From assembly GCF_016127575.1 (NCBI RefSeq), contig NZ_CP066018.1, positions 150,001 through 182,000 of the forward strand: a stretch of 32,000 nucleotides of DNA. The letters are read 5' to 3'. The position numbers were made by a program, and so were the translations under genes. The notes beneath the pieces are model-generated. The model was given only the letters and a program-made list of their open reading frames with translations, did no database searches and was not told the origin of the DNA. Positions 6,337 to 14,751 of this stretch are shown one piece after another (within the stretch, counting starts at the first letter, position 1; the number at the start of each line of letters is the position of its first letter). The DNA is from Cupriavidus necator. GTDB lineage: Bacteria; Pseudomonadota; Gammaproteobacteria; Burkholderiales; Burkholderiaceae.

Positions 6337-9300
6337 TCAGCCCTTCAGTTCGATCAGCAGATCCTTCGCCGCCACGCGATCCCCCTGCTGAACATGGACT
6401 GCGGCGATCTCGCAGTCCCGCTCCGCCGCGATATGGGTTTCCATCTTCATCGCCTCCAGCGCCAGCAGCGTCGTGCCCGCGGCCACGCGCTGCCCCGGCT
6501 GCACCGCCACCGTCACGATCGAGCCCGGCATGGGCGCGGCGACATGCAGCGGATTGTCGGGTTCGGCAACCGGACGGCCATGGCGCGCTGCCGCCGCTTG
6601 CGTGGTGCTGCGCTGCTCGACCAGCGTGGTGCGCGACTGCCCGTTCAGCTCGAACTGGACCTTGATGACACCCTCTTCGGCATCGGGGTGCGTGCCTTGC
6701 AGCGAGACCAGCAGGGTCTTGCCGGCAGCGATGTCGATCGCCACTTCTTCCTGCGGCTGCAGGCCGTACAGGTATGCCGGCGTGGGTACCACCGAGGTGT
6801 CGCTGTAGTTGCGCACATGCGCGTGGTACTCGCCGGCCTGCTTCGGGTACATCAGGTACGAAGCCAGCTGGCGGTCGTCGAGCGGCTGCTCGCACGCCGC
6901 TTCGGCCGCGGCGCGCGCCGCGTCGAGGTCGACCGGCGGGATCTGGTCGCCGGGCCGGTACGGCACGGGCGGCTCGCCGCGCAGCACCTTGCGCGACAGT
7001 TCCGCGGGGAAGCCGTCCGGCGGAAAGCCCAGCTCGCCCTTGAACAGCGACACCACCGATTCAGGGAAGGCAGTCTCCCTGGCGGGATCGCACACATCGG
7101 CGGCGCTCAGGTCGTTGGCCACCATCATCAAGGCCAGGTCGCCGACCACCTTGGACGTCGGCGTCACCTTGACGATGTCGCCAAACATCTGGTTGACCTC
7201 GGCATAGGCCCGCGACACCTCGGTCCAGCGATGCTCGATGCCGAGCGAGCGCGCCTGCTCGCGCAGGTTGGTGTACTGGCCGCCGGGCATCTCGTGGCGG
7301 TACACGTCGGCGGTGCCGGCGCGGATTTCGGATTCGAACGGCGCGTAGTAGCGGCGCACCCCTTCCCAGTACATCGACGCCTCGTGCAGGCGCTCCAGGC
7401 TGAGGCCGGGATCGCGCTCGCTGCCGGCCAGGGCCGCGGCGATGCTCGACAGGTTGGGTTGCGAGGTCAGCCCGCTCATGGCGTCGAGCGCGCCGTCGAC
7501 CGCATCGCAGCCGGCCTCGATCGCGGCCAGCGCCGAAGCGGCCGAGATGCCGCTGGTATCGTGGGTATGGAAATGCACCGGCAGCCCGGTCTCTTCCTTG
7601 AGCGCCCTGACCAGTGCCGCCGCGGCCTGCGGACGGCAGATGCCGGCCATGTCCTTGATGCCCAGCACGTGCACGCCGGCCTGCTTCAGCTCGCGCGCGA
7701 TGCCTACGTAGTACTTCAGGTCGTATTTGGCGCGCGACTTGTCGAACAGGTCGCCGGTATAGCAGATCGCGCCTTCGCACAGCGCGCCGCTCTCGCCGAC
7801 AGCATCGATCGCCACGCGCATGTTGCGCACCCAGTTCAGTGAATCGAACACGCGGAACACATCCACGCCGGCGCTGGCCGCCTGGCGCACGAAGAAGCGC
7901 ACCACGTTGTCCGCATAATTGGTGTAGCCAACCGCGTTGGAGCCGCGCAGCAGCATCTGGAACAGCACGTTGGGAACGCGCTCGCGCAGTTGCTCAAGGC
8001 GCTGCCACGGGTCTTCCTTGAGGAAGCGCAGCGCCACGTCGAAGGTGGCGCCGCCCCAGCACTCCAGCGAGAACAGCTGCGACAGTTCGCGCGCATAGAA
8101 CGGCGCGATCGGCAGCATGTCGGCGGTGCGCATGCGCGTGGCGAACAGCGACTGGTGCGCGTCGCGCATGGTGGTATCGGTCAGCAGCACCTGCTTCTGC
8201 TCCAGCATCCAGCGCGAGAACTTCTCCGCGCCCAGCTCGCGCAGCCGGTCGCGCGTACCGTAGGGCAGCGCGCCGCCGGTGTCGAAGGCGGGCAGCACCG
8301 GTGCGGGCAGCGGCAGCGATGGCAGCGTGCGGCCGCTCATCTCCGGGTGCCCGTTGACGCTGACCTCGCCCAGGTAGCGCAGCAGCTTGGTGGCGCGGTC
8401 CAGGCGCTTGGTGAACGCCAGCAGTTCCGGCGTCAGGTCGATAAAGCGCGTGGTGACGTCGCCGGACCGGAACGAGGGATGGTTGATGACGTTCTCGAGG
8501 AACTGCAGGTTGGACGCGACGCCGCGGATGCGGAACTCGCGCAGCGCGCGGTCCATGCGCCGGATCGATTCGGGCGCGGTCGGCGCCCAGGTGGTAACCT
8601 TGACCAGCAGCGAATCGTAGTACGGCGTGATCACCGCGCCGCCGTAGGCGGTGCCGGCGTCCAGGCGCACGCCGAAGCCGGCCGCGCTGCGGTAGGCAGT
8701 GAGGCGGCCGTAGTCCGGCAGGAACCCGTTCTCCGGGTCCTCGGTGGTGATCCGGCATTGCAGCGCGTGACCGTTGAGCGAAATCGCTTCCTGCACCGGC
8801 ACGCCCGCGGCGCGCACGACGATCTCGCCGTTCTCATTGCGCGTGTTCTCGGTCATGCCGAGATGGCCGCCTTCGGTCACGCGGATCTGCGCCTTGACGA
8901 TATCGATCCCGGTGACCATCTCCGTGACCGTGTGCTCGACCTGGATGCGCGGATTGACCTCGATGAAGTAGAACTGGCCGGAGTCGGCATCCATCAGGAA
9001 CTCGACCGTACCGGCATGCGTGTAGCCGACCGCGCGCATCAGCCGCAGGGCCGATTCGCACAGCGCGGCCCGGCCGGCATCGTCGAGGTATGGCGCGGGC
9101 GCCCGCTCCACCACCTTCTGGTTGCGCCGCTGCACGGTACAGTCGCGCTCATAGAGATGCACGAGGTTGCCGTGCGTGTCGCCGAGCACCTGCACTTCGA
9201 CATGGCGCGCGTTGCGCACCAGCTTCTCGACATACACCTCGTCGTTGCCGAACGCAGCCAGCGCCTCGCGCCGCGCCGCGGCGAGCGCCCCCTCAAGGTC

Positions 9301-9840
9301 CTGCTCGCGTTCCAGGACCCGCATGCCGCGTCCGCCGCCGCCCCAGCTTGCCTTGAGCATCAGCGGATAGCCGATGCCGGCGGCGAGGCGCTTGCACGTG
9401 TCCAGGTCATGCGGCAGCGGATCGGTTGCCGGCATCACCGGCACGCCCGCGTCGATCGCCGCGTTGCGCGCCGCCACCTTGTTGCCAAGCTTGCGCATGA
9501 CCTCGGGCGACGGGCCGATCCAGCGGATACCCGCGTCGATCACGGCCTGCGCGAAGTCCGGGTTCTCTGAAAGGAAGCCATAGCCCGGATGAATGGCGTC
9601 GACCTTCGCCTGCCTGGCAATGCGCAGGATATCGTCGATGTCGAGGTAAGCCGCCAGTGGCTTCTTGCCCTCGCCGACCAGGTAGCTCTCATCGGCCTTG
9701 AAGCGATGGAGCGCGAGCCGGTCTTCCTTCGAATAGATTGCCACCGTGCGCACGTTCATCTCGGCGGCCGCGCGCATCACGCGGATCGCGATCTCGGAAC
9801 GGTTGGCAATCAGCAGGGAGCGGATAGGGGCGTAGTCCAT
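6337..9840 (-). CDS. pyc: pyruvate carboxylase (single-chain: biotin carboxylase + carboxyltransferase + BCCP)
   Basis: N-terminal biotin carboxylase/ATP-grasp region (IRSLLIANRSEIAIRVMRAA..., MLKASWGGGGRGMR). HMGL-like carboxyltransferase region (LLTDTTMRDAHQSL). C-terminal biotinyl site LEAMKMET. Start set at MDYAPIRSLL (ATG 9840); the 23-aa upstream extension to 9909 is not typical. Confidence 0.95.
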   Translation of the reverse strand: MDYAPIRSLLIANRSEIAIRVMRAAAEMNVRTVAIYSKEDRLALHRFKADESYLVGEGKKPLAAYLDIDDILRIARQAKVDAIHPGYGFLSENPDFAQAVIDAGIRWIGPSPEVMRKLGNKVAARNAAIDAGVPVMPATDPLPHDLDTCKRLAAGIGYPLMLKASWGGGGRGMRVLEREQDLEGALAAARREALAAFGNDEVYVEKLVRNARHVEVQVLGDTHGNLVHLYERDCTVQRRNQKVVERAPAPYLDDAGRAALCESALRLMRAVGYTHAGTVEFLMDADSGQFYFIEVNPRIQVEHTVTEMVTGIDIVKAQIRVTEGGHLGMTENTRNENGEIVVRAAGVPVQEAISLNGHALQCRITTEDPENGFLPDYGRLTAYRSAAGFGVRLDAGTAYGGAVITPYYDSLLVKVTTWAPTAPESIRRMDRALREFRIRGVASNLQFLENVINHPSFRSGDVTTRFIDLTPELLAFTKRLDRATKLLRYLGEVSVNGHPEMSGRTLPSLPLPAPVLPAFDTGGALPYGTRDRLRELGAEKFSRWMLEQKQVLLTDTTMRDAHQSLFATRMRTADMLPIAPFYARELSQLFSLECWGGATFDVALRFLKEDPWQRLEQLRERVPNVLFQMLLRGSNAVGYTNYADNVVRFFVRQAASAGVDVFRVFDSLNWVRNMRVAIDAVGESGALCEGAICYTGDLFDKSRAKYDLKYYVGIARELKQAGVHVLGIKDMAGICRPQAAAALVRALKEETGLPVHFHTHDTSGISAASALAAIEAGCDAVDGALDAMSGLTSQPNLSSIAAALAGSERDPGLSLERLHEASMYWEGVRRYYAPFESEIRAGTADVYRHEMPGGQYTNLREQARSLGIEHRWTEVSRAYAEVNQMFGDIVKVTPTSKVVGDLALMMVANDLSAADVCDPARETAFPESVVSLFKGELGFPPDGFPAELSRKVLRGEPPVPYRPGDQIPPVDLDAARAAAEAACEQPLDDRQLASYLMYPKQAGEYHAHVRNYSDTSVVPTPAYLYGLQPQEEVAIDIAAGKTLLVSLQGTHPDAEEGVIKVQFELNGQSRTTLVEQRSTTQAAAARHGRPVAEPDNPLHVAAPMPGSIVTVAVQPGQRVAAGTTLLALEAMKMETHIAAERDCEIAAVHVQQGDRVAAKDLLIELKG

Positions 9841-9932
9841 GGGATGCAGGGAAGCGAACCAGCCGCGCGCAACCGCCACGGCAGGATCAGGTGATCGGGG
9901 ATGCAGCACGGGCGCAAGGCTTGCCCGGGCTG

Positions 9933-10324: not shown

Positions 10325-10351
10325 ATTTCAGAAATGAAATTTTTCATTTCA
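10325..10351. promoter_or_regulatory. AT-rich palindrome cluster (TTTCA/TGAAA pentamers), candidate operator
   Basis: Perfect 9-bp arms GAAATGAAA (10331-10339) and TTTCATTTC (10342-10350) with a 2-nt spacer. They overlap a second palindrome ATTTC-A-GAAAT (10325-10335). The cluster lies in a conspicuously AT-rich island within a GC-rich genome. Confidence 0.3.
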
Positions 10352-10464
10352 TGGGTGCCGCGGCCAATGCGCGATGCAGCACCTGTGCCTCGCGGCAACC
10401 GGGAGGGCCGGCGTGGGCAACGTGGCCAGGCTGACGACGCCCGCCCGGCCACGAATGCAGGCCT

Positions 10465-11184
10465 TCAGCAGGCCGCGGCCTGGGGCGAAGCCAGTGCGCA
10501 GTATGCGGGGGCGCCGGCCGTGGCAATGCGGGCGCAGTACGCCGGCTCTTCCGCCCTGGCGATACGTGCGCAATACGCGGGCTCTTCCGCCCTGGCCATG
10601 CGCGCGCAGTACGCAGGTTCGTCCGTCCTGGCGATGCGTGCACAGTACGCGGCCTCTTCCGCCTTGGCCATGCGTGCGCAGTACGCGGCCTCTTCCACCT
10701 TGGCCATGCGCGCGCAGTACGCCGGTGCCTCCGTCCTGGCAATGCGTGCGCAGTACGCGGGCTCGTCGGCCGCTGCCCGGGCACAATATGCGGCAGACGT
10801 CAGCGGGCTGCCGAATTCGCGCATGCTCAGCGCATCGCTCGCAGCGGCCATTTGCAGGAGGCGGGCCTCGTCCTCCGGACCGTCGATGCCAACGTAGGGG
10901 TCATGGTGAAGGACATAGCCGAAGATGCGCTCGCAATCGCTCGCATAGCGCCTGGTGTCCAGGATGTGGGCATGCCAGAAGGCATCCACCTGCTCGCTGG
11001 GGACGACGGGCGTGTCCGGATGCTTCGCCGCCAGCTTGAGGAATTGCCGGTAGCCGCTCTCCGCCTGCTCCAGCGATTCCGGCGACCAATGCGCATGCTT
11101 CTGATGCAGCAGCTTGGCCTTCATCCTGGAAAAGTCCAGGGCGTCGATGGCCTGCCACATGATTTCAATAGTACGGTCCTGCAT
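10465..11184 (-). CDS. DUF1399/GRDP-like (glycine-rich-domain-containing-protein-like) His-rich domain fused to nine tandem AYCAR 12-residue repeats
   Basis: SD GGGAG lies 7 nt before the ATG at 11184. The N-terminal ~125 aa carry HQKHAHW and FWHAHILDTRRYASDCERIFGYVLHHDPY, matching the WHxHxL..Y..DC...G..L.HD signature as I recall it for PF07173. The C-terminal ~110 aa are AYCARxAxxEEP units and the protein ends ...AYCALASPQAAAC. Confidence 0.8.
   Translation of the reverse strand: MQDRTIEIMWQAIDALDFSRMKAKLLHQKHAHWSPESLEQAESGYRQFLKLAAKHPDTPVVPSEQVDAFWHAHILDTRRYASDCERIFGYVLHHDPYVGIDGPEDEARLLQMAAASDALSMREFGSPLTSAAYCARAAADEPAYCARIARTEAPAYCARMAKVEEAAYCARMAKAEEAAYCARIARTDEPAYCARMARAEEPAYCARIARAEEPAYCARIATAGAPAYCALASPQAAAC
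10496..10794 (-). repeat. tandem 36-bp coding repeat array (8 units in 36-bp register, one 33-bp step, then a terminal partial unit)
   Basis: Plus-strand units begin with GCGCAGTACGC at 10496, 10532, 10568, 10604, 10640, 10676, 10712 and 10748 (exact 36-bp phase) and at 10781 (33-bp step). Units differ at roughly 3-6 positions each. Confidence 0.95.
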
Positions 11185-11237
11185 GATCTAGCTCCCTGTT
11201 ATTGGACTGCTTAAGCACGCACCGGACTGACGGGCAG

Positions 11238-14200
11238 TCAGGCGCGCATCGGTTGCGGTCCATGCTCGAGAGCGGGACCGTTCTCCATGCGGCTGGCCAG
11301 GAAGGCAGTGATCTTCGCCGGCGGCAGCGGATGGCTGAAGTAGTAGCCCTGCACTTCGTCGCAGCCTTCGCGGCGCAGGAACTCGAGTTGCACCTCGTTC
11401 TCCACGCCTTCGGCGACCACTTCGAGGCCAAGCCGGTGGCCAAGGCCGATCACCGCGCTGGTAATCTGCGTGTCGCTGCGGCTTTCCGGTATGTAGCGGA
11501 CGAAGCTGCCGTCGATCTTGACCGTATCGATCGGGAAGCGGCTCAGGTAGGCGAGCGAGGAGTAGCCAGTGCCGAAGTCGTCGATCGCCAGCCGGACACC
11601 GGTGCGCTTCAGGCGCGAGAGCCAGCTGGACGCCTGTTCGGCATCGCGCATGACCATGCTCTCGGTGAGTTCAAGCTCCAGCAGGTTGCCGGGCAGCCCG
11701 GCTTGCCGCAGGGCATCGATGATGGTCAGCCTGAGCGACTTGTCGGCGAACTGCCGTGCCGAAAGATTGACTGAAACACGCACCGGCGGCAGTCCCTGCG
11801 CGCGCCATGCGGCATTCTGCCGGCACGCTTCGCGCAGGGCCCAGGCACCGATCTCGACAATGGCGCCGCTCTGCTCCGCGAAGGGAATGAAATCTCCGGG
11901 CATGACCAGGCCGAGTTCCGGGTGGCGCCAGCGGATCAGTGCCTCGACCGCCGTGCACGCTCCCGACGCGAGCGCAATGCGCGGCTGGTAGTAGAGGATG
12001 AATTCGTCCTGCTCGAGCGCGCGGTGCAGGTGCGACTCCATGTCGATGCGCCGCTGCAGCGACGCGCTCATGCCCCGGCAGTAGAACTGGTAGCCGTTCT
12101 TGCCGAGCTGCTTGGCACCATACATGGCCAGGTCGGCATGCTTGAGCAGGGTCTGCCAGTCGCTGCCGTCCTCGGGGAAGGAACTGATGCCGATGCTTGC
12201 CGTCATGCGCAGTTCCGACTCGTTGACGACGAAGCCTGGCGCGAGCGCAGCCTGGATCCGGGCAATGGTCCGGTCCAGGATCGTCGAATCGCCCTTGGGG
12301 TCCAGCAGCACGACGAATTCATCGCCGCCGAAGCGGGTGATCAGCTCCACCTCCTCCAGGCTGCCGCGCAACCGGTCGGCCATCTCGCGCAGCACGATGT
12401 CGCCGGCATTGTGGCCGATGGTGTCGTTCACGACCTTGAATTCGTCCAGGTCCACGAAGATGACATGCAGGGCCTGGCCGCTGGCGCGGGCACGGGTCAG
12501 CGCCTGCTCGAACTCGGCCTTGAACATGAGGCGGTTGGGCAGCCCGGTAAGGGCATCGTGATTGGCGATGAAGCGCAGGTTTTCCTCGGCCTGGCGCCGC
12601 AGCAGGAAGTGCCCGGTCTGATTGGCAATGCCGCTCGCCATCGCGAGCGCATGCGTATCGGGGCTGCGCTTGCTGCGGGAATAGAGTTCGACCACGCCGA
12701 GGCTCACGTGGCCCCGGCTCAGCGGGAAGGCGAACACCGTCCGGATACCGCCCGCGTCGAGCCACCTGGCTTGCGGATGCCGGGCCATCGCGCTGCGGCT
12801 TGCATACCATTGCGGCGCCGGCAAGACCGCGGCGCCGGCCGGCCCTGCAGGGCGCTCGGCGAGCCACGGCTGCAGCGTCTTGACGCGGGCCAGGTAGACC
12901 GGCGGCAGCTTCAGCCCCTGGCTGTCATCGCCCGGCCAGAAGGCACCGGCCTCCCAGTCCATGCCTTCGAGCAGCGTGTGGACAATCCCCTCCAACACCT
13001 CGATCTCGCTGGTGGCGGTGGCCAGGTGCAGGGCAATCTGGTGTTCCTGCGTCCTGGCCTGCTCGGCGGACCTGCGCTGGCTGATGTCCTGCGCGGTGCC
13101 CCGCAGCACTGCGCTGTCCGGCGCTCCATGCGCGTGGCCGATCAGGTGCAGCCAGCCCCGGCGTCCGCGCCGCGACCGGTACGGGCACTCGAACTCGAAC
13201 GGCTGGCGATCCTGCAGGGCTGTCCGCATCCTTTCCCGCAGCACGGCGCGATGGCCGGCGTCGATCGCCTGGAACAGCGCTTCCGGAGTCGGCTTGTCGC
13301 CGCGCAAGCCTAGCAGGCGCGCCATTTCCTGGGAAAAGTGCGCGATGTCCTGGTCCAGGTCGATGCGCCAGTCGCCCAGGTGGGCAATCTGCTGCGCCTC
13401 GGCAAGCGCGGCCTGGCTGTCGCGCAGGCTGTGCGTCATCTGGTCGGCCACGGCCACGGCGCGCGCGCGCGAACTCGACAACGCGTAGGCCAGCCACCCC
13501 AGCAGCACGCTGATGATCAGGCCGGAAATCACCACCAGCCCCGGCAGGTAGCGCTGCGGACCACTGATGGCCTTGGCATCGGCAGCAAACGCAATCACCC
13601 AGCGCCGTCCGCCGAAATTCCGCACCACGCTCTTGGCCAGGTCATGCTGGCCCGGGGCCGCCTGGGCGTCCGCCAGTGCGGTCGCGCCATGCGCGGCACT
13701 GGCGTGGACGGTGCTGCCGCCAGCAACCCGGCTGCGTTCCCTGGCCGCCAGGCCGGTCACGCTGTCATAGAGCAGGTTGGCTGCAGAGAGCGGAACCGCC
13801 GCCTGCGCGAAGTCTCCGGCATCATGCACGCGGAACCGGATCCGGCGCAGGTTCTCATTGCTGACCAGGTCCTTCAGCAGGTCGTCCACCCGGATCCCCG
13901 CGCCAACCGAGCCGACATAGGCGCGCCGGCGCGCTTCCACGGAATCCAGGTCGGGCACCTTGCGGTACACCGGCAGGCGCAGCGCGATGCCCACATGCGG
14001 GTTCTTTGCCTCGCTGAAGATCAGGCGCCCGCTGCTGACTGGCTGCCCGGTATCGCGCGCGCGTTCCAGCGCGGCCAGGCGGCGTGGCTCGGCGCCCATG
14101 TCGATGCCGATCGACGCCAGGTTGAGGGCGAGCGGTTCGACATAGGTCAGCACGAAATGCCCCGGCCGCTGGCCGGGAGGGCGGACGTTGAACGTCACGC

Positions 14201-14645
14201 CGGCCTCGCGCAGGATCGGATCGCTGCGCTGCCGGGCGACAAAGGCGTCGATCTCGGCCGCCGGCACGTAGGGCGCGTAGTTCAGCGTCTGGAAACCGGG
14301 ATAGCGCTGCGGCAGGTTCAAGCCGCTGACGAAATCGCGAAACTCGCCGCGCGAGACATGGTCGCTGGCGCCGAACAGCGCCTGCATGGTCACCAGAACA
14401 TCGGTATAGAGGCGGATCCGTGTATCGATCTGCTGGATCACGTCGCCGGTATCGTTCTCAAAACGCAGGCGGACGTCCTTCTCAAGCAGGTCGGTGCAGA
14501 ACGCATAGACGACAGCCGTCGTCATCACGCCAAGCAGCAAGGTGCCCGCGGTGATGGTGCGCGACCCAAGGCGTCCAAGCGGGCGCAGCGCGCGCGCAAG
14601 CGTCTGGCGCAAGATTGTTTCCCCCCGGATGTCGATGGCAACCAT
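11238..14645 (-). CDS. CHASE-PAS-GAF-GGDEF-EAL sensory c-di-GMP turnover protein
   Basis: N-terminal TM segment plus a CHASE-like periplasmic domain (SRGEFRDFVSGLNLPQRYPGFQTLNYAPYV), then a second TM segment and PAS/GAF-like regions. Intact GGDEF (RFGGDEFVVLL; no RxxD I-site 5 aa upstream). Intact EAL signature set (EALIRW, DDFGTGYSSL, KIDGSFV, EGVE, QGYYFSHP). Confidence 0.93.
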   Translation of the reverse strand: MVAIDIRGETILRQTLARALRPLGRLGSRTITAGTLLLGVMTTAVVYAFCTDLLEKDVRLRFENDTGDVIQQIDTRIRLYTDVLVTMQALFGASDHVSRGEFRDFVSGLNLPQRYPGFQTLNYAPYVPAAEIDAFVARQRSDPILREAGVTFNVRPPGQRPGHFVLTYVEPLALNLASIGIDMGAEPRRLAALERARDTGQPVSSGRLIFSEAKNPHVGIALRLPVYRKVPDLDSVEARRRAYVGSVGAGIRVDDLLKDLVSNENLRRIRFRVHDAGDFAQAAVPLSAANLLYDSVTGLAARERSRVAGGSTVHASAAHGATALADAQAAPGQHDLAKSVVRNFGGRRWVIAFAADAKAISGPQRYLPGLVVISGLIISVLLGWLAYALSSSRARAVAVADQMTHSLRDSQAALAEAQQIAHLGDWRIDLDQDIAHFSQEMARLLGLRGDKPTPEALFQAIDAGHRAVLRERMRTALQDRQPFEFECPYRSRRGRRGWLHLIGHAHGAPDSAVLRGTAQDISQRRSAEQARTQEHQIALHLATATSEIEVLEGIVHTLLEGMDWEAGAFWPGDDSQGLKLPPVYLARVKTLQPWLAERPAGPAGAAVLPAPQWYASRSAMARHPQARWLDAGGIRTVFAFPLSRGHVSLGVVELYSRSKRSPDTHALAMASGIANQTGHFLLRRQAEENLRFIANHDALTGLPNRLMFKAEFEQALTRARASGQALHVIFVDLDEFKVVNDTIGHNAGDIVLREMADRLRGSLEEVELITRFGGDEFVVLLDPKGDSTILDRTIARIQAALAPGFVVNESELRMTASIGISSFPEDGSDWQTLLKHADLAMYGAKQLGKNGYQFYCRGMSASLQRRIDMESHLHRALEQDEFILYYQPRIALASGACTAVEALIRWRHPELGLVMPGDFIPFAEQSGAIVEIGAWALREACRQNAAWRAQGLPPVRVSVNLSARQFADKSLRLTIIDALRQAGLPGNLLELELTESMVMRDAEQASSWLSRLKRTGVRLAIDDFGTGYSSLAYLSRFPIDTVKIDGSFVRYIPESRSDTQITSAVIGLGHRLGLEVVAEGVENEVQLEFLRREGCDEVQGYYFSHPLPPAKITAFLASRMENGPALEHGPQPMRA

Positions 14646-14751
14646 GCGGCTGAACGGCCGTCACCAACGACTGATGCTAATAGTGCACTTATTGGCTGGG
14701 GTTCCATGCGAAACCCACGCTCTTATATGTCTTAACAATCTATAACAAGCG

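Follow-up and report, generated by a model that had tools for sequence, protein, structure and literature searches.

In the plant BURP-domain cyclases of the lyciumin and stephanotic acid types, a domain rich in metal ligands and a series of tandem short cores are placed in a single polypeptide with no separate maturase gene, and the fused cores are modified by the protein itself in a copper-dependent manner. An invariant short unit, repeated between variable spacers and read by a dedicated receptor, is also the design of the yeast alpha-factor, thyrotropin-releasing hormone (TRH) and FMRFamide-type precursors, where the number of copies amplifies the output per translation; these are routed through the secretory pathway, with Kex2 or prohormone convertases cleaving them at dibasic sites. 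In the agrD/agrC and comC/comD pairs a small signal gene is tightly linked to that of a membrane sensor, and the signal region is hypervariable and lineage-specific. Receptors with a CHASE domain, such as AHK4 and the bacterial protein of entry 6K62, have small adenine-type hormones made by separate enzymes as their known ligands; to our knowledge, the ligands of bacterial CHASE domains are mostly unknown outside plant cytokinin perception. Here we describe a locus of Cupriavidus necator that shares features with each of these systems. It lies in a stretch of 32,000 nucleotides (nt) of contig NZ_CP066018.1 (assembly GCF_016127575.1, positions 150,001 to 182,000), hereafter the window, in which a gene for a 239-residue protein, composed of an N-terminal domain and nine tandem cassettes built around the core A-Y-C-A, is placed next to a gene for a CHASE sensor (Table 1).

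The reading favoured here, with a rough probability of 0.4, is that this gene encodes a multi-copy precursor and that a product derived from its cassettes would be sensed by the adjacent CHASE sensor, which would in turn control cyclic di-GMP (c-di-GMP). The functional partnership between the gene and the sensor, taken alone, is far more secure than this whole signalling chain. The sensor had been missed in a first-pass annotation of the window, made from the sequence alone, and its presence makes a signalling module, rather than a peptide factory working alone, the likeliest biology. Its domains are matched by the Pfam models CHASE (E-value 2.9e-45), GAF_2 (1.6e-08), GGDEF (1.1e-43) and EAL (5.5e-76), and the nearest solved relatives of the CHASE domain are 6K62 (2e-12) and the cytokinin receptor AHK4 (3T4J, 8e-5). 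As in the known receptors, this is a genuine CHASE domain between membrane segments; with hydrophobic segments to either side, its predicted location is the periplasm.

Six separate genomic settings, drawn from four named genera plus a metagenomic lineage, had only the CHASE sensor as a common neighbour. The pairing was then surveyed at 80 further loci, searched with a hidden Markov model grown from the CHASE domain of the window. A CHASE gene was found within 1 kb at 52 of the 53 repeat-bearing loci with complete flanks, the exception showing a CHASE fragment 2 kb off, and at none of the eight relatives that lack aromatic-Cys/Ser repeats (Fisher p = 3e-9). The pairing spans Cupriavidus, Trinickia, Paraburkholderia, Noviherbaspirillum, Variovorax, Undibacterium, Duganella and metagenomic lineages. 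Across these loci the partner gene is placed upstream, downstream or divergently, and the sensor adopts the architectures CHASE-GAF-GGDEF-EAL, CHASE-PAS-GGDEF-EAL, CHASE-PAS-HisKA_3-HATPase or CHASE-HisKA_3-HATPase, the extracytoplasmic CHASE domain being the sole domain common to all of them. The gap between the two genes, 53 nt in the window, is 13–79 nt in many loci, a spacing that points to their probable co-transcription.

The similarity between CHASE domains appears to track, weakly, the type of cassette found next to them. For pairs of loci sharing the same core, CHASE identity is 3.6–3.9 points higher (+0.036–0.039, reached in 0 of 2000 permutations) with divergence of the output domains and of the N-terminal domain controlled and phylogeny not removed, and the N-terminal domain itself gives no such effect in the regression control. 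A binned version of this co-diversification test was confounded by relatedness and was discarded.

Some genomes and loci carry more than one of these genes. In Pseudoduganella namucuonensis (locus L064, 7983–9714), tandem paralogues with 11 copies of AFCGV and 11 copies of AYSGVP are found by one CHASE kinase of 608 residues, a Cys-type and a Ser-type precursor standing together in one locus. Cupriavidus consociatus LEh25 holds two complete modules (L012 and L015) on different contigs, both of the AYCAR type, whose CHASE, GGDEF-EAL and N-terminal domains are 86%, 89% and 80% identical, respectively; this presence of paralogous modules in some genomes is a point of likeness to the agrD/agrC and comC/comD pairs.

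The C-terminal 108 residues of the window protein contain nine A-Y-C sites, eight of them AYCAR and one AYCAL. The cassette cysteines occupy positions 134, 145, 157, 169, 181, 193, 205, 217 and 229, with a first spacing of 11 residues followed by seven of 12, and the chain ends in Cys239; the number of cassettes, their spacing and the terminal Cys agree with the first-pass annotation. At the nucleotide level the array was detected by Tandem Repeats Finder as 7.7 copies with a period of 36 nt (10494–10771), and a degenerate motif coding for AYCAR occurs eight times, always within the gene, against 0.02 occurrences expected from shuffled sequences (400-fold). When the codons of the AYCA core are compared among the nine cassettes, 66 of 66 nucleotide differences are placed at codon position 3 and none at positions 1 or 2. 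Because all of these differences fall at third positions, the codons indicate that the repeat reading frame is translated and is under selection.

A per-position analysis of the cassettes in 187 proteins delimits the selected unit. The universal core comprises Ala at position −2, an aromatic residue (Tyr, Trp or Phe) at −1 and Cys or Ser at 0. Position +1 is 93% identical between the cassettes of one protein and reaches an entropy of 2.5 bits family-wide; positions +2 to +4 follow the same pattern more weakly, residues +1 to +4 being lineage-specific. The spacers show 30–39% identity even inside a single protein. Since the core and positions +1 to +4 are conserved within a protein while the spacers vary, the alignments indicate that selection targets a unit of ~4–6 residues and not the whole repeat. 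The acidic pair that had been described at the end of most units holds as a feature of Cupriavidus and does not extend to the family.

Copy number changes rapidly around this conserved unit, ranging from 0 to 16 among 120 close homologues and from 2 to 18 across genome loci; between C. necator strains with at least 90% identity the number is 5–10, with the first cassette and the last two fixed. Conservation of the tail with variable copy number had been named beforehand as the key test of the proposal, and it was clearly found across homologues with 2–18 copies. Tandem conserved cores, variable spacers and variable copy number, the traits of a multi-core precursor, are all present. In the 120 close homologues, 740 of 876 tail cysteines are within AYC and 823 follow an aromatic residue, mostly with a spacing of 11–13. 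A more distant set of 147 representatives includes 58 proteins with aromatic-Cys repeats (AYC, AWC, AFC), 17 with aromatic-Ser repeats (AYS, AFS, AWS) and 31 with non-repetitive Cys-rich tails. In the full-length AlphaFold model of the window protein the tail shows no helices and a predicted local distance difference test (pLDDT) score of 35–50; it is predicted to be disordered, as expected for a substrate peptide.

Other observations concern the tails of individual homologues. In the draft assemblies of L009, L026 and L033 the cassette arrays fall at stretches of N or where a contig ends, and copy numbers from short reads are therefore unreliable and some of the apparently truncated homologues are artefacts. 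In P0024, from C. basilensis, the tail shifts after the first cassette to an alternative frame (…ALLCLRGEGGGTRLLCSNGQ…), probably as the result of a frameshift or a sequencing error in the repeat. A motif R-P-x-(L/F), often within ...Y.ERPRL..AA or GKGRPTLE, is placed in the last 25 residues of 65 of the 147 diverse representatives (P0121–P0267), including 15 of the 17 Ser-type and 17 of the 31 Cys-rich non-repeat proteins. Many loci (e.g. L054, L064, L071 and L081) show it as well, and the window protein lacks it; a possible role is that of a signal for docking or cleavage.

The N-terminal domain, modelled with high confidence (Table 1), carries a set of conserved residues. In an alignment of 28 diverse domains Trp70, His71, His73, Asp76, Thr77, Tyr80, Asp83, Cys84, Gly89, His93, His94, Pro96, Tyr97 and Gly99 are invariant, and the resulting signature (WHxHxxDT..Y..DC..FG..HHxPY) is found in 265 of 277 collected relatives from several phyla. 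Cys84 is retained in 17 of 17 Ser-type proteins and is the only Cys present in nine of them. Because every Ser-type protein keeps it, Cys84 is indicated to matter to the domain itself; and since the His/Asp/Cys signature is so widespread, with its Cys retained where every cassette uses Ser, the domain looks metal-binding or catalytic, with the signature as the candidate site, and not like a degenerate leader. The first-pass annotation had pointed to two His clusters in a domain of about 125 residues. The second cluster corresponds to the invariant signature, the first (HQKHAHW) is not conserved among homologues and is not retained as a functional element, and the domain measures about 129 residues.

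The assignment of this domain to a known family is less direct. The window protein is 100% identical to the C. necator protein cluster P0001, labelled in its sources as 'glycine-rich domain-containing protein(-like)', and membership of the DUF1399/GRDP-like family had been proposed for it. The model PF07173 of that family gives 22.1 bits with the full protein (gathering cutoff 22.7) and 24.3 bits with the isolated domain, and matches 23 of 28 relatives at E < 0.01. The alignment is limited to positions 91–143 of the 143 in the model and to residues 36–83 of the protein, leaving the HHxPY half of the signature outside. The precomputed Pfam annotation of P0001 and of all 120 listed homologues is instead a separate model, PF27765 (UCP032817-like). 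Owing to this partial match and to the PF27765 assignment, the earlier proposal is a fair lead to a related family and not a clean membership.

No structure related to the domain was retrieved. A search of PDB sequences with the domain profile gave no matches at E ≤ 10, and Foldseek with the confident domain model found no relative in the PDB (best E 1.5, template modelling score < 0.4), the weak YtfE and TetR matches at this level being meaningless. The fold, as modelled, is thus without a solved relative either by sequence or by fold. A profile search of 1.84 billion representatives returned 11,893 family members at E ≤ 1e-3 and 591 at E ≤ 1e-30. The literature searched for the bacterial family members, the locus and the CHASE pairing contained nothing on any of them, in agreement with the first-pass statement that no bacterial member had been characterised.

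Outside the CHASE-paired group, the domain is found in other settings. In Ferrovum, a planctomycete and Chondromyces it is followed by a short Cys-containing C-terminus (NPCKSTDCR, NPCSTTDCR and SCRPQRCP). At these three loci (L053:7941-15165, L067:7950-16025 and L070:7761-14398) the UCP032817-like protein is encoded first in a same-strand operon shared across phyla, followed in order by an S-adenosylmethionine methyltransferase, a TauD-family dioxygenase, a second methyltransferase-like protein and a UvrA-like ATPase of ~1450 residues; its gene content resembles that of a biosynthetic cluster that includes a gene for self-resistance. At two others (L056:5071-7800 and L075:7989-10617, from Thiomargarita and another proteobacterium) a gene for a TonB-dependent receptor lies 61–68 nt downstream of that for a repeat-tail protein, whose cassettes lack an aromatic residue before Cys (six copies of DTATCTDKIYV and two of ENAASCTKCTK). 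These contexts suggest that the tails of the family are converted into something acting outside the cytoplasm.

According to the favoured reading, the gene would constitute a two-gene signalling module together with that of the sensor, its immediate upstream neighbour. With no signal peptide, the protein would be cytoplasmic, formed by a compact His/Asp/Cys-rich domain and a disordered string of nine cassettes. The cassettes would be the payload, each offering Ala-Tyr-Cys-Ala-Arg, and we infer that they are processed by the fused domain, possibly together with unlinked housekeeping enzymes, which would turn each of them into a small product derived from the aromatic-Cys pair. The chemistry could proceed through a His-ligated metal or through a hydrolytic or transpeptidase site of the Cys-His-Asp type, and a self-contained, autocatalytic processing is possible. 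The product would leave the cytoplasm for the periplasm, where the CHASE-GAF-GGDEF-EAL sensor, probably encoded in the same transcript, would act as its receptor, recognising it through the CHASE domain and setting the levels of c-di-GMP. In this scheme the many copies per protein would amplify the signal, and the lineage-specific residues after the Cys would confer specificity. A broader and more tentative form of the proposal is that the ligand of a CHASE receptor is itself gene-encoded in bacteria. A self-processing fusion of enzyme and precursor, with a new fold and a new aromatic-Cys/Ser chemistry, would then release from each protein many copies of a small heterocyclic or peptide signal, whose post-Cys 'dialects' would be read by co-evolving CHASE domains controlling c-di-GMP or two-component outputs.

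Several points weigh against the precursor reading. The main gap concerns export towards a sensor in the periplasm, as the protein has no signal peptide and no transporter is linked to it. Clustering of the neighbours at ~85 loci revealed no conserved maturase, protease or exporter next to the module, which extends to the whole set what had first been noted for the window alone. The tail is not docked onto the domain in the full-length AlphaFold model, and the chemistry of the domain cannot be assigned, its fold being without a solved relative. The reverse control of the co-diversification test is also positive (+0.026, 52 of 2000), so that shared ancestry may explain the small signal. The biosynthetic-cluster-like and TonB contexts are restricted to three and two loci, respectively. 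Gene adjacency also fits a co-regulation or a cytoplasmic protein–protein partnership, and the searchable literature holds no expression or product data for the gene.

The alternative that survives best, itself rather unlikely, takes up this last partnership. The protein would act intact as a cytoplasmic accessory, contacting the cytoplasmic side of the sensor or a downstream pathway; its tail would serve for multivalent docking or regulation, and its His-rich domain would sense a metal or the redox state. The tight adjacency and probable co-transcription of the genes, the lack of a signal peptide and of a conserved exporter, and the fact that disordered multivalent tails are common in regulators are all consistent with such a role. 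It is weakened by the partner survey, in which the only domain shared by the sensors is the periplasmic one whereas the cytoplasmic GAF, PAS, GGDEF-EAL and kinase modules are interchangeable. Moreover, a docking tail needs neither an invariant core of three residues nor free spacers nor a fast change of copy number, and the relatives encoded next to TonB-dependent receptors and tailoring enzymes suggest conversion of the tail.

Next in rank, and also unlikely, is that the gene encodes the precursor of a ribosomal natural product that is not the ligand of the sensor, such as a secreted metallophore, antibiotic or redox-active heterocycle, the sensor setting the timing of its production or reading an unrelated cue. 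The multi-core anatomy combined with a conserved signature domain would fit this, as would the operon with two methyltransferases, TauD and a UvrA-like ATPase and the TonB-dependent receptor directly downstream at L056 and L075, an arrangement as for metallophore uptake. However, GGDEF-EAL sensors such as that of the window lack a DNA-binding output, and their neighbourhood shows no conserved regulator gene, so that the route from sensor to gene expression is unclear. Regulators are rarely linked so faithfully to one small gene across output types and orientations with nothing else conserved, and the CHASE similarity, as described above, weakly follows the type of cassette.

A thiol/tyrosine redox or metal-buffering protein, in which the periodic Cys and Tyr residues would bind metal or scavenge oxidants without being processed, had been raised from the start and is highly improbable. 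The 11 Cys among 239 residues with their regular spacing, the His-rich domain and the metal tolerance of the genus Cupriavidus would be in line with it. However, every cassette Cys is exchanged for Ser in 17 related proteins, and the Ser-type loci that were examined retain the CHASE partner; many other relatives have Phe or Trp in place of Tyr. Modules of the same architecture and with the same partner thus dispense with either residue, which speaks against this function as a general one. In addition, the tail cysteines of the close homologues are 11–13 residues apart and form no CxC or CxxC clusters, and a metallothionein-like role leaves unexplained the invariant Ala at −2 and the pairing with CHASE. 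A structural or helical repeat scaffold, also put forward initially, or a low-complexity expansion without meaning, arising in a GC-rich genome, to which the Ala-rich tails (29% Ala family-wide) and 36-nt repeats able to expand neutrally could be ascribed, is the least probable reading, as the tail is predicted to be disordered and devoid of helices, the core codons vary synonymously only, the core is kept across genera while the spacers drift, and the motif is 400-fold above chance and restricted to the gene.

The start of the gene proposed in the first-pass annotation, preceded by a GGGAG Shine-Dalgarno sequence with a spacer of 7 nt, was recovered on inspection, and cross-genus conservation together with this sequence favours the ATG at 11184. 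The annotation of strain H16 (CAJ92389.1, 219 residues) starts instead at an internal Met (MKAKLL) and loses the first 20 residues (11125–11184), among them helix 1 and the conserved Trp10, Ile13 and Leu16.

Table 1. Location of the two genes of the module, their domains and flanking signals in the window
Feature	Position	Strand	Basis or remark
Coding sequence, 239-residue UCP032817-like / GRDP-related protein with cassette tail	10465..11184	-	ATG start; stop codon 10465-10467
N-terminal six-helix domain, residues 1-129	10798..11184	-	AlphaFold2, pLDDT 92.3, predicted template modelling score (pTM) 0.87
Conserved signature F-W-H-x-H-I-L-D-T..Y..D-C..F-G..H-H-x-P-Y-x-G, residues 69-99	10888..10980	-	Invariant alignment columns
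Predicted disordered nine-cassette array, residues 132-239, core A-Y-C-A-R (last AYCAL)	10468..10791	-	Repeat detection, AlphaFold, motif count
Shine-Dalgarno-like GGGAG	11192..11196	-	7-nt spacer to ATG; read off the sequence
Possible terminator stem, GC-rich inverted repeat without U-tract	10421..10453	-	12 nt past the stop codon; no call in the consensus terminator scan
Partner gene, 1135-residue CHASE-GAF-GGDEF-EAL sensor	11238..14645	-	Directly upstream, 53-nt gap, same strand
CHASE domain of the sensor, residues 95-281	13803..14363	-	Hydrophobic segments on both sides; topology read from the translation

A consensus promoter and terminator scan made no call, including in the gap between the gene and the sensor gene, and Rfam models had no match in the gene or in the 555-nt spacer downstream. 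Matches to NCBIfam were noise driven by the repeats (EntB, 18 bits against a cutoff of 780). In a megablast search of plasmids the sole match was a replicon of C. pinatubonensis bearing the same gene pair. The downstream spacer, which extends towards the pyruvate carboxylase gene (6337..9909, minus strand), is GC-rich except for a perfect AT-rich palindrome, GAAATGAAAAATTTCATTTC, at 10331–10350, which may be a regulator binding site for pyc.

Long antisense or alternative-frame open reading frames (ORFs) overlie the gene and the sensor gene on the plus strand (10334–10897, 11922–13313 and 13338–14735), one of them rendering the repeats as MRAQYAGSSALA units. Such shadow ORFs, at the window and at other loci, are Arg-rich, recur across loci and have no Pfam match. 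Most of the clusters that appeared as conserved neighbours in the survey were Arg-rich antisense shadow ORFs of the sensor gene and were rejected; the other large neighbour clusters corresponded to a GerE-type regulator in the kinase variants and to genus-level synteny.

The module offers a concrete gene-encoded candidate for a CHASE ligand beside its receptor in dozens of species, and this adjacency makes the question of the bacterial CHASE ligands directly testable; the industrial strain C. necator H16 is amenable to genetic work. The tail fused to the domain is its obvious substrate, which opens an entry to the biochemistry of a family of ~11,900 representatives. Were the processing to be true, ribosomal peptide biosynthesis would gain a bacterial design of enzyme plus multiple cores and a new core motif, A-(Y/W/F)-(C/S), and would be linked to c-di-GMP signalling. 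Were the encoded-ligand reading to be true, Betaproteobacteria would possess a new class of cell–cell or self-signalling, and a CHASE ligand that is both endogenous and ribosomally encoded would be known for the first time.

When the module is set against the known systems, the plant proteins GRDP1 and GRDP2 (PF07173), for which physiological phenotypes only and no biochemistry are known, share with it a short region that includes the W-H-x-H-x-L..Y motif. They differ in that the alignment covers just the last third of the PF07173 model and in that the tail contains no glycine-rich region (4% Gly). With respect to the BURP cyclases, the window domain has an all-helical predicted fold, the cores are placed C-terminal to it, and the system is bacterial and paired with a sensor. 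The BURP domain (PF03181) gave no match at E ≤ 1 in the window protein, which has no CH dipeptide repeats (the BURP domain carries four CH motifs), and the core A-(Y/W/F)-(C/S) of its family matches none of the burpitide motifs; the autocatalysis described for the copper-dependent cyclases is putative here. Unlike the pheromone and hormone precursors, the window protein has neither a signal peptide nor dibasic sites flanking the cassettes, and it carries a fused conserved domain. The agr and com systems possess a dedicated processing or export gene (AgrB, ComAB), single-copy signals and receptors without CHASE, whereas the output here is often c-di-GMP. The literature searched yielded no report in which a gene-encoded repeat precursor is paired with a CHASE sensor.

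By analogy, the module would work most like a fused enzyme and multi-core precursor of the BURP cyclase kind, and it also resembles the receptor-paired multi-copy pheromone precursors. The defining molecular features of those families, namely the BURP domain, the secretory processing sites and the processing or export gene, are absent from it, and its fold, its core motif and its pairing with CHASE are undescribed in the searchable literature. Once its chemistry is known, the system may turn out to be categorically new.

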